Of a stretch of DNA of 64,000 bases, positions 4,401 through 53,919 are shown one piece after another. The stretch is from IMG/VR virus record IMGVR_UViG_3300042731_004843, positions 32,001 to 96,000 of that record. One strand, given 5' to 3'. Source of the stretch: a virus. The position numbers and the translations under genes were made by a program. The notes beneath the pieces are model-generated. The model did not search any database and was not told where the DNA came from. It was given only the letters and a program-made list of their open reading frames with translations. Within the stretch, counting starts at the first letter, position 1. Each line of letters begins with the position of its first letter.

Positions 4401-5093
4401 ATGGAGCGTCTGCGGGAGCTAGTAGAGAGCAAGAAGAGGCTGGTCAAGATCTCTTTCGCCGTGCCGGTTGTAGAGGACAAAGGTTACCAGAAGAAGGTAC
4501 GCCGGAGATTCGATAAACTGACCAAAGCGCTGGCACGTCACGGGGACCCAGTGGGCACAGGGCACAAGAGGATCGTCATCCCCAAGCGTGTTATGAAAGA
4601 GGATGACCTTGTTGGGCAGCTGGGGTTCGTTCCAGTCAAGGTGGCCATCCCGGAGGCCGGGCAGTCCCGCTTTGCCAGTTTTAGGCACCCGGACAATCTA
4701 TTCCACCTGCACGAGCACGGTGATGCGTGGGTCATGCACAAAGATGAGCACCCTGCGTCCACCATGCTGGTGAAGAAGTGGCGTATGGCCAGAGAGGCCG
4801 CTAAGAGCGCCACGGGCAAGAGTCAAGCTGAAGTGAAGGCGGCTCTCAAGGCTACGGGCGGGAAGCTCAAGCCGGTCGGGGATTTCATCAGAGGCCTGCC
4901 GCACGTGGTCACGGAGGGTGTTCCTGGAGCGTACTACTACGCCAAGGGGCAGATCTTAAAGACCAAGGGTATGCGGGAGAGGGTAGAAGAAGCTGTACCC
5001 AACGCGTACAAGCGCCAGGTGACGAAGTGGATAGAGCTAAAAAAGGCCGCAAGTGCCGGCTACGCCGATCTCGGTAGCCTAGTTCAGGAGTGA
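1437..5093 (+). CDS. polyvalent protein: SNF2 helicase + Cys-His-Asp domain + InPase-like domain + His-rich domain
   Basis: HGLGSGKT, DEAH, TASP, GGEGLDL, QVEGRAIR (SNF2 motifs); SC..HFW..DPT; IENRKGSVR..YGYI..DGEEVD..YDEDK. Confidence 0.8.
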   Translation: MRLKTAFEWAATGPNRGERVHDAPVLWRPGKLKRSDFQPAAGINPDVARGVAREPQEKVSIFDGDGTKLMPHLRAIHKLGGISASEVGIEDLDGFKTTGRHYARQAQRAFSDKPVDAGPGYGADHESNSTAGEGNEPDTSGEIPIEDPQDSTPLRGHLRNIRGLKKQGAGVLSGELLAGLPRIDVIAAEQQRQLLSRAVHEARSRGGELRGAQEPSALPLAGEGALEGAQYVRLSEADVDAINARLARQAMEKSSSWDPRLKSVSVTGCVKLAEPAPRLRTKLLPHQERVVEKLKGRPGLVVAHGLGSGKTLSSIAAAVQLEPDRTKVLVPASLRANYQKELDKHVEGTLPIEVGSLQGAAARGEVPRADLLVVDEAHRGRNPQSKTYQMIQGAEAKKRLMLTASPTYNRPSDVATLVNMAAGDRVMPMGKAFDERYIAQPKKGIWGLLPFSRKQEGLKRKGELGKALSEWVDYHKSGGKGFPDVMEERHAVKMTKRQTQLHDAAWGQLSLLSKMRLRRGLPPDKQDLSKINNFQSQTRQISSTESPYTKKGRGEVSPKIVKAVGLLDTEARANPDHKALVYSNYLGTLRDYSKELEKRKVPHAIFSGQQKMRDRKQMVEDYNAGKLKALLVSSAGGEGLDLKGTRQVQVLEPHWNVEKLKQVEGRAIRRGSHTHLPKDQQKVLLQRFESYPRGGIFRKRRGVEQVLGDMAANKERLNQEMLGLMEKSAEPPPPEGVSAKEWDEILDNKASKPRPLPEVITKDRLRDPVVQPRDLIRRQETRMEKSAKRKSCFDESVRIAVKNPQLTLMKGDPFKGSGDRAHFWLEDKDGKITDPTAGQYPKSTRVYTGGRPVSLSRNRDAVERALQKRAFKLQGQTEVQGIPVAIENRKGSVRKGKDPDGNEWRTKMQNPYGYIKGTKGADGEEVDAYVGPDKEAPKAFVVHQRDKETGEYDEDKVMLAFKSKADAKRAFLAHYDSPKFLGPISAVPMERLRELVESKKRLVKISFAVPVVEDKGYQKKVRRRFDKLTKALARHGDPVGTGHKRIVIPKRVMKEDDLVGQLGFVPVKVAIPEAGQSRFASFRHPDNLFHLHEHGDAWVMHKDEHPASTMLVKKWRMAREAAKSATGKSQAEVKAALKATGGKLKPVGDFIRGLPHVVTEGVPGAYYYAKGQILKTKGMRERVEEAVPNAYKRQVTKWIELKKAASAGYADLGSLVQE

Positions 5094-22181: not shown

Positions 22182-22210
22182 CTTATAACAGCGTGTAGGC
22201 GTTTTTTGTC
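22182..22210 (-). promoter_or_regulatory. putative phage-specific promoter (GTTATAAG class)
   Basis: A-run-N-GTTATAAG; related motif at 28756, 40201, 42409. Confidence 0.45.
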
Positions 22211-22221
22211 CTGCCCACTTG

Positions 22222-22250
22222 TTGACCCCACCGGAGCCGAGACGTAGTAT
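22222..22250 (+). promoter_or_regulatory. sigma70-like promoter of virion module
   Basis: TTGACC-N17-TAGTAT upstream of ATG 22277. Confidence 0.6.
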
Positions 22251-25508: not shown

Positions 25509-27530
25509 TTGTCCGGCGCTAGTACGCAATCTGCGTCCAGGTTCTCCAGTCGTGGTCGTTCTGGTGGAGCGCAGGACTACGGACTCCAGTACCCCAGCCC
25601 CTTCTTCGACATCGGGCAGACCTATCTCCCGGCCACCGTCAAGCAGATGTTCAGGTGGTGTAGGTACTATTACTTGGTCAACCCGCTGATCAACGCGGTG
25701 GTGTCCAAGATGGCGGAGTACCCCATCACCGACGTGCTGTTTGACACAGAGCGGACAGAGCTGAAGGACAGGTGGACAGGCTTCCTGCTGGACCATCTGC
25801 GGTACCGGGCGTTCCAGGTAGAGGTGGGGCTGGACTACTACACCTACGGTAACGCGCTTGTCTCGATCTTCTATCCGTTCTTGAAGTTGTTGGAGTGCCG
25901 CTCATGCGGCAACAAGCAGTGGGCTAAGGACGCAGAGTACAGGTTCCAGAACTATCAGTTCTACATGGTGTGCCCCAAGTGTGGGAACCATGGTCCGGCT
26001 CGAGCTTACGACCGGTACATCAAGGCGTCTAAGGGCATCAGGCTGCTTAGATGGAACCCGGAAGACGTAGACATACGCTACAACGACATCACGGGGGAGT
26101 ACGAGTACTACTACTCTATCCCGACCCAGCTCCGCAACGACATCATCATCGGCAAGAAGTCCACGGTAGAGACCGTTCCCCAGCTCTTCATAGACGCTCT
26201 GCGCCTGAAGAAGTCTGTGGTCTTCTCCCGCGACAACATCTACCACTTCAAGCGTCCAACTTTGGCGGGCAAGGACAGGGGGTGGGGTACCCCCATGATC
26301 CTCCCGGTTCTGAAGGACACGTACTACCTTCAGATCATGCGGAAGGCCCAGGAAGCCATCGCCCTCGAGCACATAGTGCCTCTGAGGGTGATCTTCCCAC
26401 AAGCCGGTTCAGCTACATCTGATCCTTTCACGTCCGTGAATCTGCAGGACTGGAGAGATCAGGTAGCCGGTGAGATCAGACGCTGGAGAGCGGACAACAA
26501 CTACATCCCAATTATGCCCCTGCCTCTAGGTCACCAGACCATCGGCGGCGACGGGCGTGCGCTCCTGCTGTCGCAAGAGATACGGGTCTGGTCCGAGCAG
26601 ATCGTGGCCGGTATGGGCATCCCTGTCGAGCTAGTGTTCGGAGGGTTGAGCTACTCTGGTAGCAACGTCTCCCTGCGCATGCTCGAGAACACCTTCCTGG
26701 GCTATCTCCAGGATCACCATTCGATGCTTAAGTGGATCATCAAGAGCACATCTGCGTATCTTGGTTGGTCCCCCGTCCGGTCCAGGTTCAAGCCGTTCAA
26801 GATGGCCGACGACCTGCAAAGAAAGGCGTATCTCTTCCAGCTCAATCAGGCCGGCAAGCTGTCGGACGAGTCCCTTTTGGCGGACGCTGACTACGATTCC
26901 GCCAAGGAGGACTTGATCATGGAGCGCGAGAGCACCCGTAGGGCGAGTGCTCATAAGAAGCGTGTCCTACAGGACGCGGACATGCAGGGCGAGGCACAGA
27001 TGGTCCAGATGAAGTGGCAGTCCAAGATGCAGGCGCAGCAGATGAAGACGGAAGCTGCTATGCAGAATGAGATAGCCAAGGACCAGGCAGCCTTCCAGGG
27101 TGAGCAGCAGAAAGACCTGATGGGCGCGCAGATGGCCATGCAGCAGGGAGGGCAGCCAGCGGAAACGGCACCAGAGATGCGGCCATCGCCAAGACGCCCA
27201 GAACTGATAGAGCCGCCGGAGCAGATCAAGTCGCCACTAACTGCTAGGTCTATGCAACCGATTCCTGCTGGGGCGACAGGAGAGTCCTTGCAGGGCAAGT
27301 CCAACATAGACCTCCTGCTTTTGGGTCGTAGGCTGGCGGACCAGCTGAACACACTGCAGCCAGTACAGAAGCAGCAAGCACTGTCCGAGCTCAGAGTCAT
27401 GCAACCAGAGCTGCATGATGTCGTTTTGGGGCTAATGGTATCAGGGGGAGCTAGAGCCTCTGCCGCAGCGGCCCGACCTCTGCCTGAACAGAAGCCGGCC
27501 CGCCGCGGACCAGAAGCGCAACTAGTCTAG
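25509..27530 (+). CDS. portal protein with Gln-rich C-terminal extension
   Basis: NPLINAVVSKMAEYPI, DYYTYGNA, IYHFK..GWGTP, GMGIP.ELV.G; size and context. Confidence 0.75.
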   Translation: MSGASTQSASRFSSRGRSGGAQDYGLQYPSPFFDIGQTYLPATVKQMFRWCRYYYLVNPLINAVVSKMAEYPITDVLFDTERTELKDRWTGFLLDHLRYRAFQVEVGLDYYTYGNALVSIFYPFLKLLECRSCGNKQWAKDAEYRFQNYQFYMVCPKCGNHGPARAYDRYIKASKGIRLLRWNPEDVDIRYNDITGEYEYYYSIPTQLRNDIIIGKKSTVETVPQLFIDALRLKKSVVFSRDNIYHFKRPTLAGKDRGWGTPMILPVLKDTYYLQIMRKAQEAIALEHIVPLRVIFPQAGSATSDPFTSVNLQDWRDQVAGEIRRWRADNNYIPIMPLPLGHQTIGGDGRALLLSQEIRVWSEQIVAGMGIPVELVFGGLSYSGSNVSLRMLENTFLGYLQDHHSMLKWIIKSTSAYLGWSPVRSRFKPFKMADDLQRKAYLFQLNQAGKLSDESLLADADYDSAKEDLIMERESTRRASAHKKRVLQDADMQGEAQMVQMKWQSKMQAQQMKTEAAMQNEIAKDQAAFQGEQQKDLMGAQMAMQQGGQPAETAPEMRPSPRRPELIEPPEQIKSPLTARSMQPIPAGATGESLQGKSNIDLLLLGRRLADQLNTLQPVQKQQALSELRVMQPELHDVVLGLMVSGGARASAAAARPLPEQKPARRGPEAQLV

Positions 27531-27970: not shown

Positions 27971-28450
27971 CTATCTGGCGATACCTAGCATTTCCCTGCC
28001 CGCGTCGTAGTTGCCGTCACCGAAATGGAACGACACGCAGTCGGCGCAGAGCAGACCCAGGTTCGCCTGATCGTCATATGGATCGAAGATCCACGTCTCG
28101 AAGTCCACCTTCCCTATTTGGAACTGGAAGGCGTAGGGGTGGACATGGAAGTCTTCCGGACATAGTCCGCACTCCCACCGACCCCCATTGGGTTTCCACA
28201 CATCACGTCTGTTCCCCACCTGCGTTAGAAAACAATGCAGGTGGAAGAACTCTATGACAGCTTCTTCACGAGTGATGTGGTTGTCGTTTTTCCAGTCTGG
28301 TAGGAAGTAGCTGTGCCCCGGGTCCTTCTTCATCGGGTACAGCCGGCCGGAGATAGCCGCTACCAGCTCATAGTCGCATCCAAATTCCTCCAGGCAGAAC
28401 CCGCACTTCTGTGCGGGGTTCACCTGGAATTGCGAAGGGATAACGTCCAT
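27971..28450 (-). CDS. Cys/His-rich Zn-finger-like hypothetical protein
   Basis: CGFC..HLHC..CGLC..CADC (duplicated unit). Confidence 0.55.
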   Translation of the reverse strand: MDVIPSQFQVNPAQKCGFCLEEFGCDYELVAAISGRLYPMKKDPGHSYFLPDWKNDNHITREEAVIEFFHLHCFLTQVGNRRDVWKPNGGRWECGLCPEDFHVHPYAFQFQIGKVDFETWIFDPYDDQANLGLLCADCVSFHFGDGNYDAGREMLGIAR

Positions 28451-28451
28451 G

Positions 28452-28568
28452 TTATGTGGCCTGCTTACGATCCTCGTCCCCTAGCGCACGACTTAGGGCA
28501 CGCGCAATATCAGCCAGCTCGGAGAGTAGCGCGGCTCCGAAACTCAGGACGAAAACCGCCCACAGCAT
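28452..28568 (-). CDS. 38-aa hydrophobic peptide (not in ORF track)
   Basis: MLWAVFVLSFGAALLSELADIARALSRALGDEDRKQAT; TAATG coupling, GAGGA RBS. Confidence 0.4.
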   Translation of the reverse strand: MLWAVFVLSFGAALLSELADIARALSRALGDEDRKQAT

Positions 28569-28702
28569 TAGTCCTCATCGGAAGTGTTGTCGTCCTCCGC
28601 TTCATCTATACCGCCGGCGATCTCTTCATCGATCGTCCTCTCGAACTCTTCCAGGCTACTGCCGCTGTCTTCATGGGCGTCGTCGGTATTGTTAGGTCCC
28701 AT
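28568..28702 (-). CDS. 44-aa highly acidic peptide (not in ORF track)
   Basis: MGPNNTDDAHEDSGSSLEEFERTIDEEIAGGIDEAEDDNTSDED; AGGAGG RBS. Confidence 0.5.
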   Translation of the reverse strand: MGPNNTDDAHEDSGSSLEEFERTIDEEIAGGIDEAEDDNTSDED

Positions 28703-28755
28703 AGACTTCCTCCTGTTTGGGGCTGGAACAGCCTCTGCTTTTACTCTTCACCCTC

Positions 28756-28784
28756 CTTATACCCATCTGCCGCAGTATATTTCG
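28756..28784 (-). promoter_or_regulatory. putative phage-specific promoter
   Basis: CGAAA-N16-GGTATAAG, same as at 40201-40229. Confidence 0.55.
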
Positions 28785-28814
28785 TTGCCAGTTCTCCAGT
28801 TGATCTGGTAGGTT
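28785..28814 (+). promoter_or_regulatory. sigma70-like promoter of RNAP gene
   Basis: TTGCCA-N18-TAGGTT with extended -10 TG. Confidence 0.4.
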
Positions 28815-28841
28815 GTACGAACACATATACGGAGCGGCCTC

Positions 28842-31800
28842 ATGGCGCGTCTTTCCCCGGAAGAGAGCTTCGAAATTCTCAAGGACCGGGTCGCAGAGAC
28901 AGTCGGCGGGCTCTTCCCGATCGTAGGGAAGAAGCACACACTGGAACTGGGACAGGTCGACGTCAACGACAGGCTTCATATAGACGACATCCGTTCACAG
29001 AAGGAGGCCAAGCTGGGTAGCCGGACTTGGGCCGTCCCTGTGGAAGCTAAGGTCGTCTTACGAGACAACGACACAGGCAAGAGGGTGGATGAGCAAAAAC
29101 TCCGCCTCATGAGCTTGCCCAAGCACACCAGGCGCTACTCCCACATCGTCGATGGCCAGGAGTACCAGATCGACAACCAGTGGCGGCTGAAGTCCGGGGT
29201 CTACGCTCGAGTGAAGGACAATGGGGAGCTGAAGTCAGAGTTCAACCTGGCCAAGGGCAGGGGCTTCAGCTTGGGGTTCGACCCCAAGAACCGCCAGTTC
29301 CACATGTCGTACGGCACCTCCAACATACCGCTGGCCCCGCTGCTGCAAGAGATGGGTGTGCCACAAGCCAAGATACAGGAGCAATGGGGCTCTGCTATTG
29401 CCCAAGAGAACGATAAAGACGTAGAGCAGGCAGTACTGAAGTTCTACAAAGCCTCTACGGGTAAGAAGGCGGACGACTACGAGCAGGCGCGGCAGTACAT
29501 GAAGGACACGCTGACCGCGACAGAGCTGCGCCCAGACACTACGAAGGTCACGCTGGGCAAAGGGTACAAGTCGGTGACTGGGGACGCTTTGATGGATGCG
29601 TCTACCAAGCTGCTGCGCATATCCCAGGGTAAAGCAGAGCCAGATCCCAGAGACTCCTTGATGTTCAAGGACCTGCACAGCACGGAGGACTTTTTCGCTG
29701 AGCGGATCCAAAAGAGTGGTCGGGACATCACCCGGCGCATACAAAACACTCTAGATCGGAAGAAGCGTGTCAGCGACATCGTCGGCCCGGACGTCTTCAA
29801 TCGCCCCATCAGGACTATGTACCGCACTTCCCTGGCGAATGTCCCAGATCAAACCAACCCCTTGGAGATGATGTCTGGGCAGATGAAGACCACCATCACA
29901 GGCGAGGGAGGCATCAAGAGTTCGCACGCCATCACTGAGGACGCCAAGCTAGTCGACCCATCACACCTCGGGTATTTGGATCCGATACACACGCCGGAGG
30001 GGGCGTCCACAGGCGTGTCCCTGCGCATGCCTATCGGCGTGAAGAAGAAGGGCCACGATGTCGCCGTCAAGATGTTCAACGTCAAGACAGGCAGACTGGA
30101 GGACGTCAATCCAGAGAAGGCCATGAACTCCACTGTCGTCCTGCCTGACCAAGTTAGGTGGCAGGACGGCAAGCCTACGCCGGCCGGCAAAACGATCAAG
30201 ATGAGTGGGCCAGGTAATGAGATCGTCGAAGGGCCCATGAAGCAGGCGGACTACATCATGCGGGACCCCATACAGATGTTCTCCATGGCATCTAATCTGG
30301 TCCCTTTCGTGGCAGCAGACCACCCGAACCGCAGCACCATGGCGGGGAGGCACATGGAGCAGGCAATACCGCTACAACGGCGCAAGGCCCCCTTGGTGCA
30401 GAGTGTAGCGGGCACCAAGACTTTTGAGCGGGTGATGGGTGATTACGCCGGCCACACCACGCGCTTTGCTGGGGAGGTCGTGGGAATCAAGAAAGACGCC
30501 GTCGTCATCAAAGGAGACGATGGCAAGAATCATGAGGTTCAGCTATACGATCACTTCCCACTCAACGACGATAAAGGCTTCCTCCACTCGACTCCTACGG
30601 TGAAGGTTGGGGACAAGGTTAAAAAGGGCCAGCCGATAGCGGACACCAACTTCACAGATGGTGGGGCCCTAGCTCTAGGCACCAACCTCAAAGTCGGATA
30701 CATGCCCTACAAAGGGTACAACTTTGAGGACGGCATCGTGATCAGTGAAGGTGCCGCAAAGGAGTTGTCCAGCGAGCACCTTTACCGCAAGACCCTACAA
30801 CGAGACCGGCAGCACGTGCTGGACAAGAAGAAGTACCAGGCGTACGCGCCAGATGCCGTAACTCGAGAGCAATCAGACAAGCTCGATGATGAAGGGGTCA
30901 TCAAGCCAGGGCAGGTAGTGTCTCCGGGTGATACCCTGATCGCCGCACTACGCGAGAAGAAGGACACCAAGGAAGATCGCGAGCTCGCACGTATCCACAA
31001 GTCTCTAGTCCGGCCGTACACTGATGCCAGCGTGAAGTGGGAGGCTGACCACCCGGGGGTGGTGCAGGAGGTGGTAAAGAAGGGCAAGAAGTTGGCTGTC
31101 CACGTCAAGACTTTGGAGGCCGCTGAAATCGGGGACAAGATCGCCGGCCGTCACGGCAACAAAGGCATCATCACGAGCATTTTGCCGGATGACGAGATGC
31201 CACAGACCAAAGACGGCAAACCACTACAGATTCTGATGAACCCCACTGGCGTGCCCGGCCGTACTAACCTCGGCCAAGTGCTGGAGACGGCTGTCGGCAA
31301 GATAGCTGAGAAGACTGGTAAGCCGTACACGGTCAAGAACTTCCAGCCTAATGAAGATCTACACGCCAAAGTTACCGCAGATCTGAAGGCGCACGGGCTA
31401 CCTACTGACGGAAAAGAAGAAGTCGTGGACCCAAAGACCGGTAGGGTTTTGGGCAGGATCCTGACGGGGCCACAACATGTGGTCAAGTTGAAGCACCAAG
31501 TAGAGAAAAAGATGATCGCCAGGGCTGGTGGACCTGGCTATGCGTATGACAGGAACCTGGTACCCAAGGGAGGGGGCCCGCACGGGGCGCAGGCTTTGGG
31601 CACTCTCGGCCTCTACTCCATGCTGGCGCATGGCGCTAAGGCCAACTTGAGGGAGATGCAGACTCTCAAGAGTGACGCAGGCCAGAGTGATGAATTTTGG
31701 GCCGCCCTACAGGCTGGGGAAGCGCTGCCGGCGCCACGTCCCACGTTCGCGTACAAGAAATTCACCAGCTATCTCAACGCGCTAGGGGTCAACGTTAAGA

Positions 31801-34800
31801 AGGACGGCAACAATCTCTCACTCATCCCGTTCACCGATAAGCAGGTGGAGGAGATGAGTAATGGGCAGATCAAAGACGCAGCCAGGATGGTGCGGGCCAA
31901 GGACCTACGCCCAGAGACTGGAGGGCTGTTCGATCCCAAGACCACTGGCGGTGTTGACGGTACGAAGTGGAGCCACATTCGTCTGGCCGAGGCTATGCCC
32001 AACCCCTTGTTCGAGCGGGCGATACAGAGCCTCACCGGACTAGATCAGAAGAAGTACACGGATCTGGTTACTGGTAGGGCGGCTTTGGATAAGAGCGGCA
32101 ACCTGACCTCCAACTTGGACGCCGGCGTAACCGGTGGTGCTGCAATAGATAGTCTGCTCAAGAAGGTCGACACCAAGACGGCACTGGAACAGGCGCAGAA
32201 GGAGCTGGACAACCCCAACCTGAAGGGCAACCGCCTCGACCAAGCCAACAAGAAGGTCAAGTTCCTGCGGGCGCTAGATTCCGCAGGACTGAATGCCCGG
32301 GACGCGTACATGATGCAGAACGTACCGGTCCTGCCGCCGTCCATGCGCCCCATCTCCCAGCTACCTAATGGCGATCTCAATTTTGACGACGTCAATGGCC
32401 TCTACAAGGGGCTGCACCTAACGTCGTCCCAATTAAAGAAGCAGCAGTCTAGTAAGTTGCTGCCGCCAGAAGAGATGCAAGAGACCAGGGAGGAACTCTA
32501 TGATGGGCTACGTGCATTAACTGGTTTGGGCGGCAATCCAAGGCAGGAGTTCCGCGGCATCCTGGACGTGATCGGAGGCAAAAGACTGGAGACGTCTGGT
32601 GGCCGGGCAACTGGTAGAAAGGTGGGCTCACCAAAGGAGGGCTTCTTTCAGAAGAAGTTGGTGCAGAGAAAGCAGGACCTCTCTATGCGGTCCACCATCA
32701 TCCCCGAGCCGGCACTAGCTTTGGACGAGGTGGGGCTGCCCAGACGTGCGGCGCTTGAGCTCTACAAGCCATTTGTGGTTAGGGAGCTGCGCAACATAAC
32801 TGGCGCTTCCCCATTGGAAGCGCAGAAGAAGATCGGAGAGGGCGGACAGTTGGTAAACAGGGCGCTTGAGCGTGTGGTAGAAAGCCGCCCCGTCTTGTTG
32901 AAGAGAGACCCGGCACTGCACAAGTACAGTGTGCAGGCCTTCAAGCCGCGCATTGTGGGCGGCAAGGCTGTCCAGATCCACCCGCTGGTGACCTCCGGCT
33001 ACAACGCAGACTTTGACGGGGACACGATGGCCGCCTTCGTGCCCGTGAGTAATGAGGCCGTTGAGGAAGCCAAGAAGATGTACCCCTCGAGGAACCTTTT
33101 CAGCCCCTCGACTGGCAGCTTGATGTACTCCCCTACGCTGGAGACCCAGCTTGGTCTGTACGGCATCACGCAGCAAACCGGAAAGAAGACAGGCAAGCAG
33201 TTCAAGGACATCAAAGAGGTCCACTCCGCTTTGAACAAGGGCCAGGTAGGCCTCAATGATACTGTCCGAGTGGGTGGCCTGACGTCCACGACGGGTAAGT
33301 TTCTGGTGGGGGAGGCGCTACCAGAAGATATGCGCAAGGATTTCCTCAAGAGGAAAGACCCCCTGGACAAGGCCGGGCAAAAAGAGCTGCTTACAACACT
33401 GGCCAAGCAGCACCGCAATGACTACGGGGAGGTGGTCAACAAGCTAAAGGACCTGGGCAATCGCTGGTCGACGGATACCGCGTTCTCTATTGGTCTGGAC
33501 GACATCAAGCCGGAGACACGGACGAGAGATAAGATCTTGAAGGCCGCGGAGAAGCGAGTGGCTGCGGCAGGCGGCAAACCAGAAGCGGCCATACGGGAAT
33601 TCGACAAAGCCACGCAGGAGATGGCCAAAGAGTTCGCCAAGATGCCAGAGGGCCGTAGCGCGCTGCTCACTATGAACCGTTCCGGTATCAAGCCCTACAA
33701 CGACACTCTTCGGCAGATCAAGATGGCCCCCATGCTGATCGCTAACGCCAAAGGAGAGGTCATCCCCACTCCGGTACGCAAGTCCTACGCAGAGGGCCTG
33801 GATTTGGCAGACTACTGGACCTCGATGAGTGGGGCACGCAAGGGCATCATCCAGAAGGTACAACAGGTCCAAGAGCCTGGGTACTTGTCCAAGCAGGTTA
33901 TGAATTCTGTGATGAACAACACGATCGCGGACAATGACTGCGGTACGGACAAGGGTATTGCGCTGCCGACAGACGAGAAGGATATCCTAGACAGGTACAC
34001 GGCTGCGCCAGTACGGGCTGGAAAGAAGACCATACCCGCAGGTACGTTGGTCACTCCAGAAGTACGGAACACGTTGCGTAACAACAGGGTAGGGCGGGTG
34101 GTGGTGCGCTCTCCTTTGCGCTGCCAGCACGGCCCAGGTCTCTGTAAGAAGTGTTACGGCCTTACTGAAGACGGAAGAGAGCCGGAAGTAGGCTTGAATG
34201 TGGGCGTGTTGGCCGGACAGGCACTAGGTGAGCGCGCCACCCAGCTGGCTATGAAATCCTTCCACACGGGGGGCACTGTAGCGACCAAGGAGGGCCTGGT
34301 AGATGAGTTTCAGCGGGTAAAGAACTTGCTGCTCTTCCCCAAGACTCTGCCGGGATCTGCTACTCTGTCTACCGTGAACGGCAAGGTAGACAAGATAGAG
34401 AAGGACCCTGCCGGTGGACACAACGTGTTCATCTCTGGGGAGAGGCACTACGTTCCCCAGAAGCGGGGCGTGCCCATGATGGGCGGAAAGACATTGCGCA
34501 GAGGGGCCCAGGTTAAGAAGGGTGCCGCGATCTCCGGGGGGGTGGTGAACCCGCACGATATGCTGCCGCTGACTGGTGTGGAGCCCGTACAGGGCTACCT
34601 ATCCAATGAGCTGCACAACATCTACGGGCCTCATGGTATCCGCCGCAGGAATACCGAAGTGGTGGTCAAGTCGCTAACGAATCTCACCAAGGTGGATGAT
34701 CCCGGAGACCACCGTGAGTTCATCCGTGGCGACTTTGCGCCACAAACACTGGTCGCGAATATGAACAGGCGAGACAAAGGCAAACGGCCTGTACGCCACA

Positions 34801-35000
34801 CACCAATCCTCAAGGGCGTGGACATGCTACCGCTGGACATGCAAGAGGATTGGATTGCTAGAATGAATCACCAACGACTGTCTCAGACAGTCGTGGCGGC
34901 AGCGCAGCAGGGGTGGACCAGCAAGCTGCATGGTAAGCACCCTATTCCTCCGGTTGTTTATGGTGCAGAGCTGGGCAAAGCAAAACCTGGAGAATACTAA
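28842..35000 (+). CDS. rpoBC: single-chain DNA-directed RNA polymerase, beta-beta' fusion
   Basis: Beta motifs: SHLGYLDPIHTPEG, GYNFEDG, GDKIAGRHGNKG; beta' motifs: PVLLKRDPALH, YNADFDGD, GARKG, GQALGERATQLAMKSFHTGG. Confidence 0.95.
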   Translation: MARLSPEESFEILKDRVAETVGGLFPIVGKKHTLELGQVDVNDRLHIDDIRSQKEAKLGSRTWAVPVEAKVVLRDNDTGKRVDEQKLRLMSLPKHTRRYSHIVDGQEYQIDNQWRLKSGVYARVKDNGELKSEFNLAKGRGFSLGFDPKNRQFHMSYGTSNIPLAPLLQEMGVPQAKIQEQWGSAIAQENDKDVEQAVLKFYKASTGKKADDYEQARQYMKDTLTATELRPDTTKVTLGKGYKSVTGDALMDASTKLLRISQGKAEPDPRDSLMFKDLHSTEDFFAERIQKSGRDITRRIQNTLDRKKRVSDIVGPDVFNRPIRTMYRTSLANVPDQTNPLEMMSGQMKTTITGEGGIKSSHAITEDAKLVDPSHLGYLDPIHTPEGASTGVSLRMPIGVKKKGHDVAVKMFNVKTGRLEDVNPEKAMNSTVVLPDQVRWQDGKPTPAGKTIKMSGPGNEIVEGPMKQADYIMRDPIQMFSMASNLVPFVAADHPNRSTMAGRHMEQAIPLQRRKAPLVQSVAGTKTFERVMGDYAGHTTRFAGEVVGIKKDAVVIKGDDGKNHEVQLYDHFPLNDDKGFLHSTPTVKVGDKVKKGQPIADTNFTDGGALALGTNLKVGYMPYKGYNFEDGIVISEGAAKELSSEHLYRKTLQRDRQHVLDKKKYQAYAPDAVTREQSDKLDDEGVIKPGQVVSPGDTLIAALREKKDTKEDRELARIHKSLVRPYTDASVKWEADHPGVVQEVVKKGKKLAVHVKTLEAAEIGDKIAGRHGNKGIITSILPDDEMPQTKDGKPLQILMNPTGVPGRTNLGQVLETAVGKIAEKTGKPYTVKNFQPNEDLHAKVTADLKAHGLPTDGKEEVVDPKTGRVLGRILTGPQHVVKLKHQVEKKMIARAGGPGYAYDRNLVPKGGGPHGAQALGTLGLYSMLAHGAKANLREMQTLKSDAGQSDEFWAALQAGEALPAPRPTFAYKKFTSYLNALGVNVKKDGNNLSLIPFTDKQVEEMSNGQIKDAARMVRAKDLRPETGGLFDPKTTGGVDGTKWSHIRLAEAMPNPLFERAIQSLTGLDQKKYTDLVTGRAALDKSGNLTSNLDAGVTGGAAIDSLLKKVDTKTALEQAQKELDNPNLKGNRLDQANKKVKFLRALDSAGLNARDAYMMQNVPVLPPSMRPISQLPNGDLNFDDVNGLYKGLHLTSSQLKKQQSSKLLPPEEMQETREELYDGLRALTGLGGNPRQEFRGILDVIGGKRLETSGGRATGRKVGSPKEGFFQKKLVQRKQDLSMRSTIIPEPALALDEVGLPRRAALELYKPFVVRELRNITGASPLEAQKKIGEGGQLVNRALERVVESRPVLLKRDPALHKYSVQAFKPRIVGGKAVQIHPLVTSGYNADFDGDTMAAFVPVSNEAVEEAKKMYPSRNLFSPSTGSLMYSPTLETQLGLYGITQQTGKKTGKQFKDIKEVHSALNKGQVGLNDTVRVGGLTSTTGKFLVGEALPEDMRKDFLKRKDPLDKAGQKELLTTLAKQHRNDYGEVVNKLKDLGNRWSTDTAFSIGLDDIKPETRTRDKILKAAEKRVAAAGGKPEAAIREFDKATQEMAKEFAKMPEGRSALLTMNRSGIKPYNDTLRQIKMAPMLIANAKGEVIPTPVRKSYAEGLDLADYWTSMSGARKGIIQKVQQVQEPGYLSKQVMNSVMNNTIADNDCGTDKGIALPTDEKDILDRYTAAPVRAGKKTIPAGTLVTPEVRNTLRNNRVGRVVVRSPLRCQHGPGLCKKCYGLTEDGREPEVGLNVGVLAGQALGERATQLAMKSFHTGGTVATKEGLVDEFQRVKNLLLFPKTLPGSATLSTVNGKVDKIEKDPAGGHNVFISGERHYVPQKRGVPMMGGKTLRRGAQVKKGAAISGGVVNPHDMLPLTGVEPVQGYLSNELHNIYGPHGIRRRNTEVVVKSLTNLTKVDDPGDHREFIRGDFAPQTLVANMNRRDKGKRPVRHTPILKGVDMLPLDMQEDWIARMNHQRLSQTVVAAAQQGWTSKLHGKHPIPPVVYGAELGKAKPGEY

Positions 35001-35314
35001 TGAACGAGATCCAAATGGCCAGCATGTCAGACGAGATAGGTAAGATCAAGCAAGCCGGTATCGGTAGCGTGCTCAAAGGCGTGGGCAAGTTCTTCAAGGG
35101 TGGTCTGGAGGGGGCAGGACAGCTGGCTAGTAAGTCTGGGCGGTCAGGGTTGTGGCAACAGACTAAGAGCCTCCCTGGGCAGATGCGAGAGTCCTTCCGA
35201 CAAGGTGGCCTGGCCGGAGCAGGAAGAACGCTGGCGGGGTCTACTCCCGCTCAGATAGCTGGCGTGGCTGCGGTCCCGTTCGCTGCTGGCAGATTGTCGA
35301 AGCGAGACAACTAG
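35000..35314 (+). CDS. small Gly-rich amphipathic protein with DEIGKIKQA leader
   Basis: TAATG coupling to RNAP gene; leader motif. Confidence 0.6.
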   Translation: MNEIQMASMSDEIGKIKQAGIGSVLKGVGKFFKGGLEGAGQLASKSGRSGLWQQTKSLPGQMRESFRQGGLAGAGRTLAGSTPAQIAGVAAVPFAAGRLSKRDN

Positions 35315-36580
35315 ATGTCCTTCCCCAATTCACCCTCATCCTCCAGGATGAGGCCCGCCTGGATCGAGACCGGGACGGTGGCCAATGTAAACGCCAAAAA
35401 CATGACGTTGGACTGGGTATCCCAGTACACCGGCAAGCAGATCCCTGACGTGCAGTGGATGTCCTCGTACGTACACTACAGCAACGGCGAGGGGTTCACG
35501 TGCGTGCCGGAGGTTGGCGCCCTGTGTGCTCTGTGCTTTCCGTCTGATGACGATCCGCCCTTCGTACTTGGGTTTCTCACAGGGCCCGAGCTGATTGGGG
35601 CAGATGCCGGAGACCTACAGGAGAAGGTAGAGGATCCCGGCGTAGAGAATGAAGAAGACCTGCCGCAGTCGCAGACCACCCAGGCGGGAGGGACTACTAG
35701 CCCCACCGCTAACCCCAGCGATGCTAGCTTCCGTGGTGGCAGGCCAATACTAAACCCAGGGGACATGTATTGGCAGGGACGCAACGAGAACTTCGTGGTG
35801 CTTCGGCGCGGGGGCGTGCTGCAGCTGGGCAGCACTCAGATCTGCCAGCGGGTCTACATCCCAGTCGGTAATATCATCAGGGATTTCTGCGAGAACTATG
35901 AGCTGAACACGGCAGCAGGCACCCTGAGCTGGCAGGTCAAGCGCAACGAGAGCAATCCCAGCGGCAACGCGCCCTCCGAGTTCGAGCTCATCTCCAGGGA
36001 GAACGCCCAGGATAAGTACGCTTCTGTGAAGGTAATGATTGGTACGCCCCGTGACGACAAGGCTAAAAAGAAGCTGTCTAGCGGCAACAACGCGTTCATA
36101 GAACTTGTCCTGGCCCCTCAGAAGATCGACCCGAATACGGGAGAGGTGTCTGGCAAAGGTGTGTTCGTGATCAGAGTAGACAAAGAGGGCAACTCGTTTG
36201 TCTACCAGGCGGGGGATCGAGACGAGGAGGTAGGCAACGACACAGTCACGGTCAGGGGCGCGCAAAATGTAGAAGTCGCGGGGGCGCGCACGATCAAGTC
36301 CCAGAGTGAGAGTAAAGAACTGCAGGGCAATCAGGACGTTAAGGGCGCAGCTAGCACAGAGACTTGGAGTGGAACCAAGACGATAGCAGCAGCACAACTG
36401 CTGCTTGGAGGTACTGGGGCTTCCGAGCCGGGCGTGCTTGGTCTAAAATTGGCGGCATGGTTGTCATCGCACACACATACGGTCACCGTGCCACCAGGGA
36501 CAGCGGTAGTATCGACGCCGCCCATGACTGCACAGGCTTTGCCCGATGCGATTCTCTCGACCAAAGTAAAGCTGTTATGA
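35315..36580 (+). CDS. baseplate central spike (gpV/gp5-like)
   Basis: N-terminal OB-fold-like G.V..V/VPEVG, beta-repeat stretch, C-terminal HTH (His-x-His) apex motif. Confidence 0.7.
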   Translation: MSFPNSPSSSRMRPAWIETGTVANVNAKNMTLDWVSQYTGKQIPDVQWMSSYVHYSNGEGFTCVPEVGALCALCFPSDDDPPFVLGFLTGPELIGADAGDLQEKVEDPGVENEEDLPQSQTTQAGGTTSPTANPSDASFRGGRPILNPGDMYWQGRNENFVVLRRGGVLQLGSTQICQRVYIPVGNIIRDFCENYELNTAAGTLSWQVKRNESNPSGNAPSEFELISRENAQDKYASVKVMIGTPRDDKAKKKLSSGNNAFIELVLAPQKIDPNTGEVSGKGVFVIRVDKEGNSFVYQAGDRDEEVGNDTVTVRGAQNVEVAGARTIKSQSESKELQGNQDVKGAASTETWSGTKTIAAAQLLLGGTGASEPGVLGLKLAAWLSSHTHTVTVPPGTAVVSTPPMTAQALPDAILSTKVKLL

Positions 36581-40200: not shown

Positions 40201-40229
40201 CTTATACCTTATCATTGCGGATCGTTTCG
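40201..40229 (-). promoter_or_regulatory. putative phage-specific promoter
   Basis: CGAAA-N16-GGTATAAG. Confidence 0.55.
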
Positions 40230-40242
40230 GTAGAATGGGAAC

Positions 40243-42072
40243 ATGTCCATAGTATCGCTAGACGAAGTGAAGTTGATCAGGTCCGCTAAGACCATGCCAC
40301 TTCTCTACTCGGCGGACGGCGGAATCAAAGAGCCGTGGTTCGACTACGATGAGGAGGGCATACCCACTGATTTTGGTCTGGATCTCGAGCCCCCTGACGT
40401 ATCCCCGGAAGAGTTGGCGGAAATCGATCCCGACACGTTTATCTACGACGTGTCGCCCTCCCAGTTCGCGGAGACGGCCATCAGAGTGCCCGAGGCTGGC
40501 CGGGTCACGGACTTCAAGTTCGAGGGGCGCGAATACCTGCGCAGGGTCTACGACTCTGACTCTAGGAAGATACTACTGAAGTGTGGGCGTCAGGTTGAGA
40601 AGAGCACGACCCTAGGTAACAGGCTGCTCTGCTACTCATCCCTGACCAATAACTTCCGCTGTCTGTTCGTGGCTCCCTCGGCTGAGCAGGCCAAGGTTTT
40701 CTCCAACGACCGCATCAAGGACGTCATCGATGCGTCGCCGCTACTCAAGGCGTACACTTCCAGTAAGATCAACCAGGCCGTCTTCTTCAAGAAGTTCATC
40801 AACTTCTCCCAGATCCGGCTGCGCTATGCGTACCTTACGGCTGACCGTGTCCGTGGTATCCCCGCCGACCTGGTTACCATTGACGAGATCCAGGACATCC
40901 TGATCGACAACATCCCGGTCATTGAGCAGTGTGCCTTCCACTCTCCCTACAAGTTGTTCCTCTACTCAGGCACTCCGAAGTCGATGGACAACACGATCGA
41001 GTTCTACTGGAACGAGTTCTCCACGCAGAACGAATGGGTAGTACCCTGTGAGCGGCACGGCACGCCCAACGACTCCAGCTCCTGGCATTGGAATGTTCTT
41101 ACCGAGCGCAACATAGGTAAGAAGGGCCTAGTGTGCGACCGGTGCAAAGAGCCGATCAACGCACAGCACCCCATGGCGCGTTGGGCTGCCCTCAATCCGG
41201 TACACGAAGAGAACAAGTCCAAAGTCACTTTTGAGGGGTACCGCGTCCCGCAGATCATGGTGCCGTGGGTGGACTGGCCGGAGGTACTCCAGGCGCAAGA
41301 GCAATACCCCAGAGCCCAGTTCATGAACGAGAAGCTGGGCATGTCCTACGACTCTGGGGTGCGCCCCATCACTAGGGCACAACTTAAAGCCTGCTGCCAG
41401 CCCAGCATCCGGATGGGAGATATCGAGCACTTCAAGCAGATCGCACAAGGTACACGGATATGGGCCGGGATCGACTGGGGGCCGGGGGAGAACGCCTCGT
41501 TTACGTGCATAGCATTCGGCGGGTACATGGGTACCGGCGTGTTCAACATCTTCTGGGTCCATCGCTTCACTGGACCGGACCTCGAGCCTGAGAGACAGCT
41601 AGACCTGATCTCTCAGATGCTTTCCCAACTGAATGTTCAGTTGGCCGGCGTGGACTATGGCGGGGGCTTCTACCAGAATGATGCGCTGATCCGTCGCTTT
41701 GGACCGGCCAGGGTACAGAAGTTCCAGTACAACCCCCGACAAAAGAAGAAGGTCTACTGGGAGCAGAACCTGCTGCGGTGGATGTGCCACCGCTCCGAGG
41801 TGATGAGCGACGTCTTCAATGCCATGAAGCAGCAGAAGATAGCGCTACCTAACTGGGATGAGTTCTGTGACCCCTACGGCCAGGACATCCTGAACATCTT
41901 CAGTGAATTCAATGAGCGTCTGAGGATGATCGAATACAAGAAGGCCCCGGGCAAGACGGATGACGCCTTCCACTGCATCCTCTACTGCTTGCTGGCTTCT
42001 ATGATCCAGAACCCGAGGCCGGACATCATCACGCCTATGAAGGAAGAGGGAATCCCGCAGCACCATGGCTAA
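40243..42072 (+). CDS. terL: terminase large subunit
   Basis: KCGRQVEKST (Walker A), TIDEIQD (Walker B), SGTP, GIDWG and DDAFH nuclease motifs. Confidence 0.9.
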   Translation: MSIVSLDEVKLIRSAKTMPLLYSADGGIKEPWFDYDEEGIPTDFGLDLEPPDVSPEELAEIDPDTFIYDVSPSQFAETAIRVPEAGRVTDFKFEGREYLRRVYDSDSRKILLKCGRQVEKSTTLGNRLLCYSSLTNNFRCLFVAPSAEQAKVFSNDRIKDVIDASPLLKAYTSSKINQAVFFKKFINFSQIRLRYAYLTADRVRGIPADLVTIDEIQDILIDNIPVIEQCAFHSPYKLFLYSGTPKSMDNTIEFYWNEFSTQNEWVVPCERHGTPNDSSSWHWNVLTERNIGKKGLVCDRCKEPINAQHPMARWAALNPVHEENKSKVTFEGYRVPQIMVPWVDWPEVLQAQEQYPRAQFMNEKLGMSYDSGVRPITRAQLKACCQPSIRMGDIEHFKQIAQGTRIWAGIDWGPGENASFTCIAFGGYMGTGVFNIFWVHRFTGPDLEPERQLDLISQMLSQLNVQLAGVDYGGGFYQNDALIRRFGPARVQKFQYNPRQKKKVYWEQNLLRWMCHRSEVMSDVFNAMKQQKIALPNWDEFCDPYGQDILNIFSEFNERLRMIEYKKAPGKTDDAFHCILYCLLASMIQNPRPDIITPMKEEGIPQHHG

Positions 42073-42956: not shown

Positions 42957-43025
42957 ATACTATGTCGTCCCCAGGCGTCCTTCAACCTGGGTATGTTGAC
43001 AGTACCGGAAGCACGCACCTATGAT
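42957..43025. promoter_or_regulatory. divergent sigma70-like promoter pair
   Basis: Minus: TTGAAG-N17-TAGTAT (42985-42957); plus: TTGACA-N18-TATGAT (42996-43025). Confidence 0.6.
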
Positions 43026-43042: not shown

Positions 43043-43960
43043 ATGAGCGATCCCAGTGCTATCCCCCTGGGCCTGCAGCAGCAAGAGGCCGCCAGAAATA
43101 TTGATCCGGAACAGCTAGAGATGATGGGTAAGAGGGCGGCAGCTCTGTACACACAGGGTACGCCACTCAACGAGGCCGTCGTCTCGATAGTGAAGGAGGC
43201 ACGGCTGGCGCCTGAACAGGTCAAGAGGGTGTGCGAATTCGCCAATACCTCGGCTTATCTAGAGGAGTTCGAGAAGGCCGGGGAGGTCAGGAACGTGGAG
43301 TTCCAGGGTGGTCTGGCTGACCCGGGGGTGGTGCTGAAGGAGCTCAATGATGGCTCGGTGCCAGCTGTGCACCAGGTCTCCACGGAAGACTATGCTCCCC
43401 CCTCCGGATCCTACAAGACCGCTAGCGCTGATGTGTCCCTCCTGGCTGAGGCCTTCGGAGCGGTAGCAGGCCTGGAAAAGACCGCTAGCGTGAACCACTC
43501 TTCCCGAGCAAATCCAGTAGAGGCCGTCCATGATCTACGTGTGCGGCTGGAGGGTGCACGGGATCATTTGATGAGCAAGCTCTCCTCCTCAGAGATCGTC
43601 CTCAATGAGGCCAAGATCTTACTGAAGGAGGCGGCCGCCGAGGCAGTGCTGCAGGGCATGCCGATGGGAGATATCGTCCGGGCCTGGTGCAACTACGGTG
43701 ACGCCAATCAGATCAAAGAGGCGACGGTCATGGTCAGGGACCATCTCCGTGCCCGTAGGATACTAGGGGCCGAACAGTTCGCGGAGTCCATGTCCAAGGA
43801 GGCCTCTGCCGGAGTCATCGCCAACCCGGAGCACCCACTGGTGGACAACTTCCTAGTGCTCAATAAGATCGCCTTCGAGCATGCGAAGCTCGAGGAGGGC
43901 GTACGTATCCTTGGCGACCGTCTGGGAGACGTGCAGTCCTCACTTAGAGGGCTACTATGA
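43043..43960 (+). CDS. KxA-rich head-module protein
   Basis: KRAA, KEA, YKTAS, EKTAS, KEAAA, KEAS, NKIA. Confidence 0.6.
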   Translation: MSDPSAIPLGLQQQEAARNIDPEQLEMMGKRAAALYTQGTPLNEAVVSIVKEARLAPEQVKRVCEFANTSAYLEEFEKAGEVRNVEFQGGLADPGVVLKELNDGSVPAVHQVSTEDYAPPSGSYKTASADVSLLAEAFGAVAGLEKTASVNHSSRANPVEAVHDLRVRLEGARDHLMSKLSSSEIVLNEAKILLKEAAAEAVLQGMPMGDIVRAWCNYGDANQIKEATVMVRDHLRARRILGAEQFAESMSKEASAGVIANPEHPLVDNFLVLNKIAFEHAKLEEGVRILGDRLGDVQSSLRGLL

Positions 43961-50376: not shown

Positions 50377-51498
50377 ATGAGCGTTCCCGCAAGAGTACTG
50401 AATGACCTCTTTTCCCAGAAGCTGGGCACCAGCGAGGGGAAGGAAAAGATCGCGGAATACGCAGGCACCTACATTCGTGACCGGCTGCGTGAAGTCAGCT
50501 TTGCGCGCAAGATTCTGCCCCCGCAGATGGTCACCCGTGCGGACTGCCAGCGTTCCGTCAACCACGACACCCTGGTGAAGATCATCGACGTCGAGCCCAA
50601 GAGCCGCGCGATGGCCATCACCTTCCGCGGTCAGCCGACCGCACGGTTCATCCGCGCTCCCAGGGCGGAGGTTCCGTTCTTCACCGTCTCGAGCGAGAAG
50701 TTCGAGAAGACCGAGCAGGAGCTCCTGGCCTACGAGATGCCGATCACCAAGGTGATCGAGGACAACTCGGTCAAGGACATCCAGGAGATCGAGGACCGTG
50801 AGTTCACGATCCACATCGAGGCGGCTGTCCAGGCCCTCCAGGCGGAGGCCAATGGCGGCGTCACGACCACCCTGAATGCCACGTCGGTTCAGGCCGGTAC
50901 CGTGGTGGAGTTCTCGGTGCGCAAGGGTGAGCTGGCCCGCAACGCCACCACCGATGACGGCACCGTCTATCCGGTACAGAGGCCGGACTTCGTCAACCTC
51001 TTCAAGCTGTTGGACGGCAACAGGCTGCGCGCGGAGATGGTTCTCATCACCGAGGTGGACTGGGACGACATCCTACAGTGGACCGTTGAGGATTTCGGTG
51101 ACCGCGTCCAGTCCGAGACGACGGTGGACGGCTACAAGTACAACCTGCTTTTGGGCCGGGCGTACTGCCGCACCATCAAGACGGACATCCTTCGTCCAGG
51201 CAACATCTACTGCTTCACCAAGCCGGACTTCTTTGGCCGGTTCTTCATCCTGAACAACACCAAGTTCTACATCGACAAGATCGCGAACCTGATCACGTGG
51301 CAGTCCTGGGAGGACATCGCCATGTCGGTCATCAACATCGCGTCGGTGCGGAAGGTGGAGCTGTACTCGGGTGACGCGACATCCAACGACGCCGATGGTA
51401 TCCTCTCTTCGGTCATCCCCGTGGACGAGGAAGATCTAGGCGCTGAGAACAACCGAGTCGATTCCGGCCTGGTGTTCCCGGGTGTCGAGGTCTTCTAG
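50377..51498 (+). CDS. major capsid protein (HK97 fold)
   Basis: 373 aa, strongly biased codons, RE.SFARKIL..DIQEIED..F, strong RBS, followed by terminator. Confidence 0.8.
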   Translation: MSVPARVLNDLFSQKLGTSEGKEKIAEYAGTYIRDRLREVSFARKILPPQMVTRADCQRSVNHDTLVKIIDVEPKSRAMAITFRGQPTARFIRAPRAEVPFFTVSSEKFEKTEQELLAYEMPITKVIEDNSVKDIQEIEDREFTIHIEAAVQALQAEANGGVTTTLNATSVQAGTVVEFSVRKGELARNATTDDGTVYPVQRPDFVNLFKLLDGNRLRAEMVLITEVDWDDILQWTVEDFGDRVQSETTVDGYKYNLLLGRAYCRTIKTDILRPGNIYCFTKPDFFGRFFILNNTKFYIDKIANLITWQSWEDIAMSVINIASVRKVELYSGDATSNDADGILSSVIPVDEEDLGAENNRVDSGLVFPGVEVF

Positions 51499-51543
51499 TC
51501 CTCTGGCTTAGTCCTAACGGACTGCCGTGGGCAAGACCACATG

Positions 51544-51578
51544 GGCGCCGGCGTCGCTATGGCGCCGGCGCCTTTTTT
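51544..51578 (+). terminator. intrinsic terminator after MCP
   Basis: GGCGCCGGCG stem followed by T6. Confidence 0.85.
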
Positions 51579-53082: not shown

Positions 53083-53151
53083 ACAATGGTAAGTACGATA
53101 ATGGTTGCTATCCTTGCTGTGCAGTCGTACGCTACTTCTATGGAGGTAGCT

Positions 53152-53919
53152 ATGGCAAAAGTACGCTTGGATCATGGGCTGATCGTACGTCTTTACCAAG
53201 AGGGTAAGTCTGCTGCTGAAGTGGCAGTGGCGGCAGGTTGCTCGAAACCTGGGGTGCTTCATGTGTTACGTCTACACGAAGTGCCACTTCGTGTAGGGGC
53301 TAAAAGATCAGATACGGAGAGGCGTCTAGGGTTTCAGCCGACGAAGACGTGGGTACTCTCTCTGCTACAAGAAGCGGATAGCGCAAAGCAGGCAGCAGAA
53401 AAAGCCAACGTCCCGTACTCTACATTTATCGACTGGATGGACAAATTGGACGTCTCTCGGGCCCCCTGGCGCGGTGGGCCCAGAAGCGGCAATGCGCGCA
53501 GACAAGAGATCCCCATCGAGGAGGCGATTGCACTTTCCAATGAAGGCACGCCGTATGCGGAGCTCGCTGCTCGCTACGGCGTTTCCTACGGAGTTGTCTG
53601 CCGCCGGATGAAGGATGCCGGCCACGTGTCACCCAAAAACAAGCAGACCAAGCACTCCCAGTTCCGCCACGTACAGGTGCAGAAGCGTCGGGTTCTGAAC
53701 GAGTTAGGCATTACTACCTGTCAGATTTGTGGCGAGAGCAGGTCCCTGGACTATTCTCACATCGTGGCTGATAGGGACGGCGGGCCTATCGCCGCCGACA
53801 ATTGTCTTGTTTTGTGTCCTTCGCACCATCGATTTTTCGATAGCGATTCCCTGACGTCGGCCGAATGGCGTAAGATTTCTCGCAAGGTATTGGCGGCAAG
53901 GAAGAAGTACGCCGTTTAG
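53152..53919 (+). CDS. HNH endonuclease with N-terminal HTH repeats (free-standing homing endonuclease)
   Basis: CQICG..YSHI..GG..DNCLVLCPSHH; three HTH-like repeats; less GC3-biased than neighbours. Confidence 0.8.
   Translation: MAKVRLDHGLIVRLYQEGKSAAEVAVAAGCSKPGVLHVLRLHEVPLRVGAKRSDTERRLGFQPTKTWVLSLLQEADSAKQAAEKANVPYSTFIDWMDKLDVSRAPWRGGPRSGNARRQEIPIEEAIALSNEGTPYAELAARYGVSYGVVCRRMKDAGHVSPKNKQTKHSQFRHVQVQKRRVLNELGITTCQICGESRSLDYSHIVADRDGGPIAADNCLVLCPSHHRFFDSDSLTSAEWRKISRKVLAARKKYAV

Follow-up and report, generated by a model that had tools for sequence, protein, structure and literature searches.

Natural fusions of rpoB and rpoC are found in Helicobacteraceae and in Wolbachia (Zakharova et al. 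1999; Lane & Darst 2010, as cited in PMC7483510). Jumbo phages of the phiKZ/AR9 type package one of their RNA polymerase (RNAP) sets in the virion for early transcription (PMC7598289, PMC7824862), and the RNAPs of the crAss-like phages (gp66 of phi14:2) and of P23-45 hold both double-psi beta-barrels in one virion-borne polypeptide, which in P23-45 is fused to the tape measure (PMC10770324). Here we analyse a 64,000-nucleotide stretch of DNA from a large, uncultured tailed phage (the window), i.e. bases 32001-96000 of the 108,145-bp IMG/VR record IMGVR_UViG_3300042731_004843, which is ~58% complete according to CheckV and has a GC content of 58%. The open reading frame (ORF) at 28842-35000 on the + strand encodes the catalytic core of a bacterial-type multisubunit RNAP, with beta and beta' joined head to tail.

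The nearest isolates are the Vibrio phages D69, D148 and D181 (187 kb) and the Salmonella phage Arash (181 kb), with 31-33% identity. Their RNAPs belong to the same lineage and share the join between beta and beta', the loss of the beta' zinc ribbon and the position after the portal gene; a phage sigma factor and an SNF2 helicase partner are further common points. The difference is in the beta' part. In Arash and D69 the beta subunit and the N-terminal part of beta' are in a protein of ~1525 residues and the rest of beta' is a separate gene of ~606 residues, the cut being at the equivalent of residue ~1480 of the window enzyme, whereas the latter is one chain. In Arash and the D phages 0.6-4.8 kb of other genes lie between the two RNAP genes, in D148 and D181 with a homing endonuclease among them. 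Arash also has AADYDGD where the window protein has NADFDGD, and it carries two sigma genes.

The fusions of Helicobacteraceae and Wolbachia are similar in that a bacterial-type enzyme is joined head to tail, but they are full-size, cellular and work with alpha2, omega and the host sigma, whereas the phage protein is trimmed and has neither the zinc ribbon nor the insertions. The phiKZ-like and AR9-like RNAPs are also phage relatives of the cellular enzyme without alpha or omega. However, they consist of four or five polypeptides, come in two paralogous sets, show far greater divergence and lack a sigma-70-family factor, whereas the window lineage has one fused gene per genome and a recognisable sigma. 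The Cobetia phage Carin-5 and the Yersinia phages GN1 and YerA41 carry bacterial-like beta and beta' as well (in Carin-5 with a sigma alongside), but these are two unfused genes of ~900-1100 residues that form a very long separate branch in both trees described below. The mReC metagenomic contigs given in part of the tables of PMC7481178 have separate genes of ~1000-1390 and 890-1010 residues at 35-51% GC, and for these contigs identity with the window phage is ruled out by the separation of beta and beta'. Finally, the crAss-like and P23-45 enzymes scarcely resemble cellular beta and beta' in sequence, whereas the window protein matches the Pfam families directly. In the literature searched, the family is described nowhere beyond the annotation in the Arash genome paper, and the jumbo-phage RNAP papers of 2020 and 2021 and a review of 2026 do not mention it. 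The lineage is a large, barely described phage group that joins features of the phage multisubunit RNAPs with those of the natural rpoBC fusions.

The fused polymerase gene and its relatives

The ORF starts with ATG behind a GGAG ribosome-binding site and stays open for 2,052 residues (228 kDa). The Pfam families follow each other in the order Rpb2_3, Rpb2_6, Rpb1_1, Rpb1_2, Rpb1_3 and Rpb1_5; the two beta families cover residues 335-898 (Rpb2_6 at 580-898, E 3e-65) and the four beta' families residues 1135-1957. The best PDB beta' chain gave an E value of 5e-107, and residues 1065-2030 were aligned to residues 142-1130 of C. difficile beta'. The active-site motifs of beta are HTPEG at residue 383 and the catalytic-lysine motif GDKIAGRHGNKG at residues 765-776 (nucleotides ~31134-31169), with GRHGNKG at residue 769; those of beta' are NADFDGD at residues 1388-1394 (33003-33023) and the trigger-loop SFHTGG at residue 1806. 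Alignments to the Salmonella, Acinetobacter and Staphylococcus subunits indicate that both double-psi beta-barrel active-site motifs are kept, i.e. the lysines of GRHGNKG and the aspartates of NADFDGD. The original prediction had placed all main catalytic motifs of beta and beta' in order in a single ORF of 2052 residues and had proposed a bacterial-like, size-reduced single-chain enzyme inside a block of virion genes; Pfam order, motif positions, PDB matches and alignments agree with it as to the enzyme, and the neighbouring genes described below as to the location.

The beta-like half comprises residues 1-991 (28842-31814, + strand), as supported by Rpb2_3, Rpb2_6 and the alignment of a clade-specific hidden Markov model (HMM) to Salmonella beta, and the beta'-like half comprises residues 992-2052 (31815-35000, + strand), as supported by Rpb1_1, _2, _3, _5 and the PDB beta' chains. 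The halves meet without a linker at residue ~991/992 (nucleotide ~31815): the end of beta, LGVNVKKDG, aligns with the extreme C-terminus of bacterial beta, and the chain enters beta' at the equivalent of its residue ~19. The junction peptide quoted in the original prediction corresponds to residues 977-997 (31770-31832).

The protein is ~700 residues shorter than E. coli beta plus beta' (~2750 residues) because the proteobacterial insertions (SI1, SI2, i11, SI3), the beta' zinc ribbon and the beta' C-terminal tail are absent. On Salmonella beta the clade HMM aligned to segments 53-228, 423-933, 1050-1127 and 1193-1339; residues 5-29, 229-345 (SI1), 934-1049 (SI2) and 1125-1178 have no counterpart. 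On Salmonella beta' the absent parts are residues 945-1139 (SI3) and ~60 C-terminal residues. At the N terminus of beta', residues 1-142 are compressed to ~67 and a Gly-rich loop replaces the four cysteines of the zinc ribbon. This loss is common to the window protein, three other clade members and Arash, and the window RNAP has no cysteine before residue 1700. The second zinc site of beta' (E. coli C814, C888, C895, C898), on the other hand, is present at residues 1700-1771 (33939-34154, + strand) and holds all four cysteines of the chain (1700, 1761, 1768, 1771) in the motifs NDCGT and CQHGPGLCKKC.

Further parts of the enzyme are altered rather than missing. The rudder is shortened, the switch-3 motif GGQRFGEME is replaced by GAQALGTLG, and the beta' clamp helices (residues ~1174-1250) and the beta flap-tip helix (residues ~705-725) are retained but diverged. 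In the Rif pocket, which differs from that of bacteria, the equivalents of the E. coli resistance positions H526 and S531 are Gly and Thr in the window protein; insensitivity is therefore predicted, and the phage RNAP is probably not inhibited by rifampicin.

A scan of IMG/VR gave 33 related loci with 44-79% identity, at least 15 of which have an uninterrupted frame of ~2031-2141 residues. A search with residues 800-1300 returned more than 120 protein clusters that span the junction region completely (100%). Their sources are JGI, ENA, Logan and NCBI; most have a length of 2040-2075 residues, and the contigs reach 188 kb. A single RNAP gene is present in each genome, relatives included, and the lineage occurs widely in metagenomes from sediment and fresh water.

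The longer relatives (frames of 2476-3588 residues) have in-frame insertions of 340-520 residues without stop codons. Many insertions start with Cys and finish with Asn followed by Cys or Thr, and a Pfam search of the longer homologues found LAGLIDADG, Hom_end and intein-splicing domains, so the inserts are inteins. In-frame inteins need single-chain translation, which shows that the gene is read as one polypeptide. The intein sites fall exactly on catalytic motifs, i.e. HTPEG, GRHGNKG (within it and after it), NADFDGD, the zinc site and the trigger loop; a single gene can have as many as four. Genes with one to four inteins occur at eight loci (L015, L021, L022, L027, L028, L030, L036 and L038); the 3,588-residue frame of L030 has four, the window gene none.

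Maximum-likelihood trees were calculated from a beta' block of 377 columns and a beta block of 502 columns. They are unrooted and include a thin sample of six bacteria of three phyla, among them metagenome-assembled genomes (MAGs) that hold binned contigs of related phages. The fused clade forms one group with Arash and D69 (support 99/99 for beta' and 100/99 for beta), and the six bacteria form a separate group (100/99 in both). The other phage RNAPs (Carin-5, GN1, TM30, Va2, RP13, EP_H11) are placed elsewhere in both trees. The lineage is outside the six sampled bacteria, and the trees, which are silent on depth, show that the RNAP gene was not recently captured from the sampled phyla. In the beta tree the placement of Arash and D69 with respect to the fused clade is ambiguous, and the split of beta' may therefore be secondary. 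As Helicobacter and Wolbachia are outside the tree sample, it is the phage context and the trimmed architecture that argue for a fusion independent of theirs.

These data also bear on the trivial explanation that the fused gene is an assembly artefact, a pseudogene or bacterial contamination of a phage bin. Three related copies do lie in MAG bins named Desulfatibacillum, Deltaproteobacteria and Myxococcales. However, the same three MAGs hold an ordinary separate rpoC as well (open frames of 1447-1467 residues) on other contigs, and the fused gene sits on phage contigs, the longest of 199 kb, with portal on one side and terL on the other. The junction is, moreover, common to all of the above clusters, which are of independent source, the inteins are read through in frame, and the supports of 99-100 in the beta and beta' trees keep the lineage apart from the bacteria sampled. 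This explanation is thus so improbable that we regard it as effectively refuted already, and the fused gene is authentic and well conserved. The contigs of the lineage that were binned into these GTDB MAGs (L046, L047 and L048) are phage contigs of up to 174 kb; the binning is either bin contamination or a weak hint of the host.

Sigma, alpha and omega

The statement that the window contains no recognisable alpha, omega or sigma gene held up, but the implied lack of a sigma factor did not, as a sigma-70-family gene is present elsewhere in the genome. It is located at G000:C1:3453-4223, 28.5 kb upstream of the window start, and encodes 256 residues. In the Pfam search Sigma70_r3 scored 34 bits, i.e. 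above the cut-off, and region 4 remained below the cut-off. Orthologues occur in four of the five larger related contigs, and a profile of five orthologues matched only sigma factors in the PDB (best E 1e-9). The AlphaFold model (predicted local distance difference test score, pLDDT, 76) was assigned to sigma chains by Foldseek with a probability of 1.00. The orthologue in the related contig G004 is 54% identical to the sigma of the record and 36% identical to the virion-detected gp10 of Arash. By these sequence and model comparisons the phage has its own sigma-70-family factor.

There is one recognisable sigma gene per genome, and tblastn and Pfam searches of the record itself gave no second sigma similar to Arash gp196. 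The ORF at 53086-53919 (+ strand) has a Sigma70_r4 signal and was considered as the sigma; it was rejected, since it resembles helix-turn-helix (HTH) and HNH homing endonucleases and is unlike the Arash sigmas. It is a multi-HTH and HNH endonuclease-like gene inserted among structural genes. The presence of the sigma gene together with the retained clamp helices and flap tip points to a holoenzyme-type make-up, with a predicted pairing of sigma and core.

Alpha (TIGR02027) and omega (PF01192) had no match in the record or in four relatives (75%, 64%, 95% and 89% complete), whereas the searches did detect the control genomes. The ORF of 104 residues at 35000-35314, which overlaps the RNAP stop codon, was considered as an omega-like subunit and discarded, being of low complexity and conserved in one relative only.

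The fusion may nevertheless still need host alpha, and perhaps omega, in which case it would be a core-replacement enzyme, packaged or not. The modules around the alpha-binding surfaces of bacterial beta and beta' are retained, and the sequence is compatible with alpha binding. Against this, the missing ~60 C-terminal residues of beta' are those that presumably contact omega, and once the two subunits are covalently joined the chief reason for an assembly platform disappears. According to a review, moreover, those phage multisubunit RNAPs that have been characterised (phiKZ, AR9) work without alpha and omega. On balance we consider a need for host alpha unlikely.

Gene neighbourhood and promoter-like elements

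The RNAP gene had been placed between the portal gene and the spike and terL genes. The portal homologue at 25509-27530 (+ strand; 32% identity to Arash gp204, annotated as portal protein, E 2e-84) and terL, the terminase large subunit gene, at 40243-42072 (+ strand; phrog_675, E 2e-58; homologous to Arash gp1) uphold this placement. The spike is less certain: the ORF at 35315-36580 (+ strand), in the RNAP transcription unit, has weak matches to Phage_base_V (E 0.003) and Gp5_C (E 0.03) and is possibly a central spike protein. It is kept downstream of the RNAP gene in 28 related loci. The synteny with Arash comprises the portal, RNAP, terL, major capsid protein and SNF2 helicase genes and several structural proteins; most neighbouring genes had no match in PHROGs.

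The major capsid gene is at 50377-51498 (+ strand; phrog_2522; homologous to Arash gp226). Directly 3' of it, at 51543-51573 (+ strand), is a strong terminator-like hairpin of 14 pairs (11 GC) with a T-run behind it. The ORF at 1437-5093 (+ strand; 1,218 residues) is a fusion of an SNF2-family helicase with InPase (Pfam SNF2-rel_dom, Helicase_C and InPase, 1e-43) and is 38% identical to Arash gp217 (E 4e-79). The gp217 gene lies directly after the gene for the C-terminal part of beta' in Arash, and its product was detected in the virion. The SNF2 helicase is a possible RapA-like partner of the phage RNAP.

Three small ORFs lie upstream of the RNAP gene. A Cys-rich ORF of 159 residues at 27971-28450 is on the opposite (-) strand and is kept in 16 related loci. 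A highly acidic ORF of 44 residues is at 28568-28702 (- strand), its start and ribosome-binding site being conserved in several relatives. The ORF of 79 residues on the + strand at 28456-28695 is Arg/Ser-rich, has no homologue and is probably spurious.

The 139 bp between the divergent small ORF and the RNAP gene (28703-28841) contain two conserved elements. The first is the motif CTTATACC at 28756-28763 (+ strand), 86 nucleotides before the RNAP ATG, which is nearly invariant in 10 of 11 relatives. The pattern CTTATA[CA]C has further copies at 22182-22189, at 40201-40208 and at C1:105697 of the genome. All four copies are intergenic and on the + strand, and each lies 42-95 nucleotides upstream of an ORF; the genes concerned are terL, the RNAP gene, ORF 22277 and an ORF that lies beyond the window. 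Related loci totalling 676 kb contain 55 occurrences, of which 54 are on the RNAP strand, in three syntenic places. The motif is a candidate promoter or regulator site. It is not present upstream of the RNAP gene in the subclade with 44-49% identity, in which two loci (L033 and L037) have another motif in common at this place, GGTTCTTGTTCCGCA.

The second element, at 28785-28814 (+ strand), resembles a sigma-70-type promoter, TTGCCA-N18-TAGGTT with a TGn extended -10, and ends 28 nucleotides before the RNAP ATG. The strict pattern has a single match in the genome, and TTGCCn ... TGnTAnnTT is kept in most of the 13 aligned relatives. Pairs of this kind, with the pattern TTGACC-N17/18-TAGnAT, are also found in front of terL, ORF 22277, ORF 43025 and a gp14-like structural gene. 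The sites of the promoter-like pairs are 22222-22250, 28785-28814, 40209-40236 and 42996-43025 in the window and C1:22515-22544 in the genome, and the spacing to the start codons of the RNAP gene and the virion-module genes is fixed at ~27-32 nucleotides. Four of the six promoter-like matches in the genome fall 0-32 nucleotides upstream of ORF starts, against 0.2 expected. A lenient pattern for host-type sigma-70 sites showed no enrichment in the window (8 found, ~16.6 expected). The ORF listed from 43025 probably has its true start at the ATG at 43043. The -10 element of terL ends 6 nucleotides before the ATG, so that its mRNA may be leaderless, or else the true start of terL may lie farther downstream. 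For the conserved leader of the RNAP gene RNAalifold predicted no consensus base pairing. The conserved promoter-like elements upstream of the RNAP and virion genes are new here.

Probable virion packaging and proposed mode of transcription

The RNAP of Arash consists of gp206 and gp216. In the mass spectrometry of Arash virions, gp206 had the highest spectrum count of all proteins (3516), gp216 had 1210 and the sigma gp10 had 467, and the helicase gp217 was detected as well (PMC10585845). These homologues and the position of the gene suggest that the window RNAP is packaged in the virion too. The position, together with the promoter-like elements in common with terL and the virion genes, also suggests that the RNAP is made late.

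The explanation that we find best, and which as a whole we hold to be probable with some reserve, is that a fused core and its own sigma are made with the virion proteins, packaged, ejected and used for host-independent transcription. The covalent join of beta and beta' would take over the part that the alpha dimer and omega play in assembly; no phage gene was found for either. Promoters would be recognised by the 256-residue sigma docking on the beta' clamp helices and the beta flap tip, and the likeliest targets would be promoters of the TTGACC-N17/18-TAGnAT type before the RNAP gene and the virion genes. The RNAP gene would head a transcription unit with baseplate/spike-type genes; its product would be made with the virion proteins, enter the capsid along with sigma and leave it with the DNA at ejection, and it would start phage transcription independently of the host polymerase. 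As these genomes have no other RNAP gene, one and the same enzyme would act from the start to the end of infection.

Several points weigh against this explanation. The virion evidence comes from the Arash homologues, and the Arash preparation was inclusive, with 116 of 252 proteins found, ribonucleotide reductases and RNA ligases among them (PMC10585845), so that carry-over of abundant non-structural proteins is possible. The promoter-like element of the RNAP gene is near the general bacterial sigma-70 consensus; host RNAP could therefore transcribe the gene, and packaging would then be unnecessary. As the record is ~58% complete, early genes and further factors may be missing from it. Recruitment of host alpha or omega may also be compatible with the sequence.

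A rival reading is a polymerase that does not enter the virion: host RNAP with sigma-70 would transcribe the gene from TTGCCA-N18-TAGGTT after infection, and the fusion with the phage sigma would take over middle and late transcription, unpackaged. The conserved consensus-like promoter with its extended -10, 28 nucleotides upstream of the ATG, fits this scenario, as does the very inclusive Arash proteome, in which the RNAP signal could be carry-over. However, promoters of this type also stand before structural genes of the virion, normally a late class; the spectrum count of gp206 exceeds that of every other Arash protein and the sigma was detected with it; and the RNAP gene is inside the virion module across the whole lineage. 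We therefore judge an unpackaged enzyme to be rather unlikely, though it deserves to be kept in mind.

Under the packaging explanation, virion delivery and alpha independence are each plausible. Its strictest form, a two-gene holoenzyme in which the 228-kDa beta-beta' chain and a small sigma, without alpha and omega, travel in the capsid, leave through the tail and transcribe the whole genome by themselves, is a possibility that we put forward tentatively. If true, this would make it the smallest RNAP system of bacterial type in nature and, beside those of N4, phiKZ and the crAss-like phages, an independent route to host-independent transcription. Activity of the fusion and sigma by themselves would mark the pair as the minimal working set of a bacterial-type RNAP and show that a covalent join can take the place of the alpha dimer and omega. 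The pair would likewise provide a transcription system of two components that is compact, has its own promoters and is probably insensitive to rifampicin. The enzyme would then represent a fourth kind of virion-borne polymerase, and at ~30% identity to the cellular enzymes it would allow a direct structural comparison with them.

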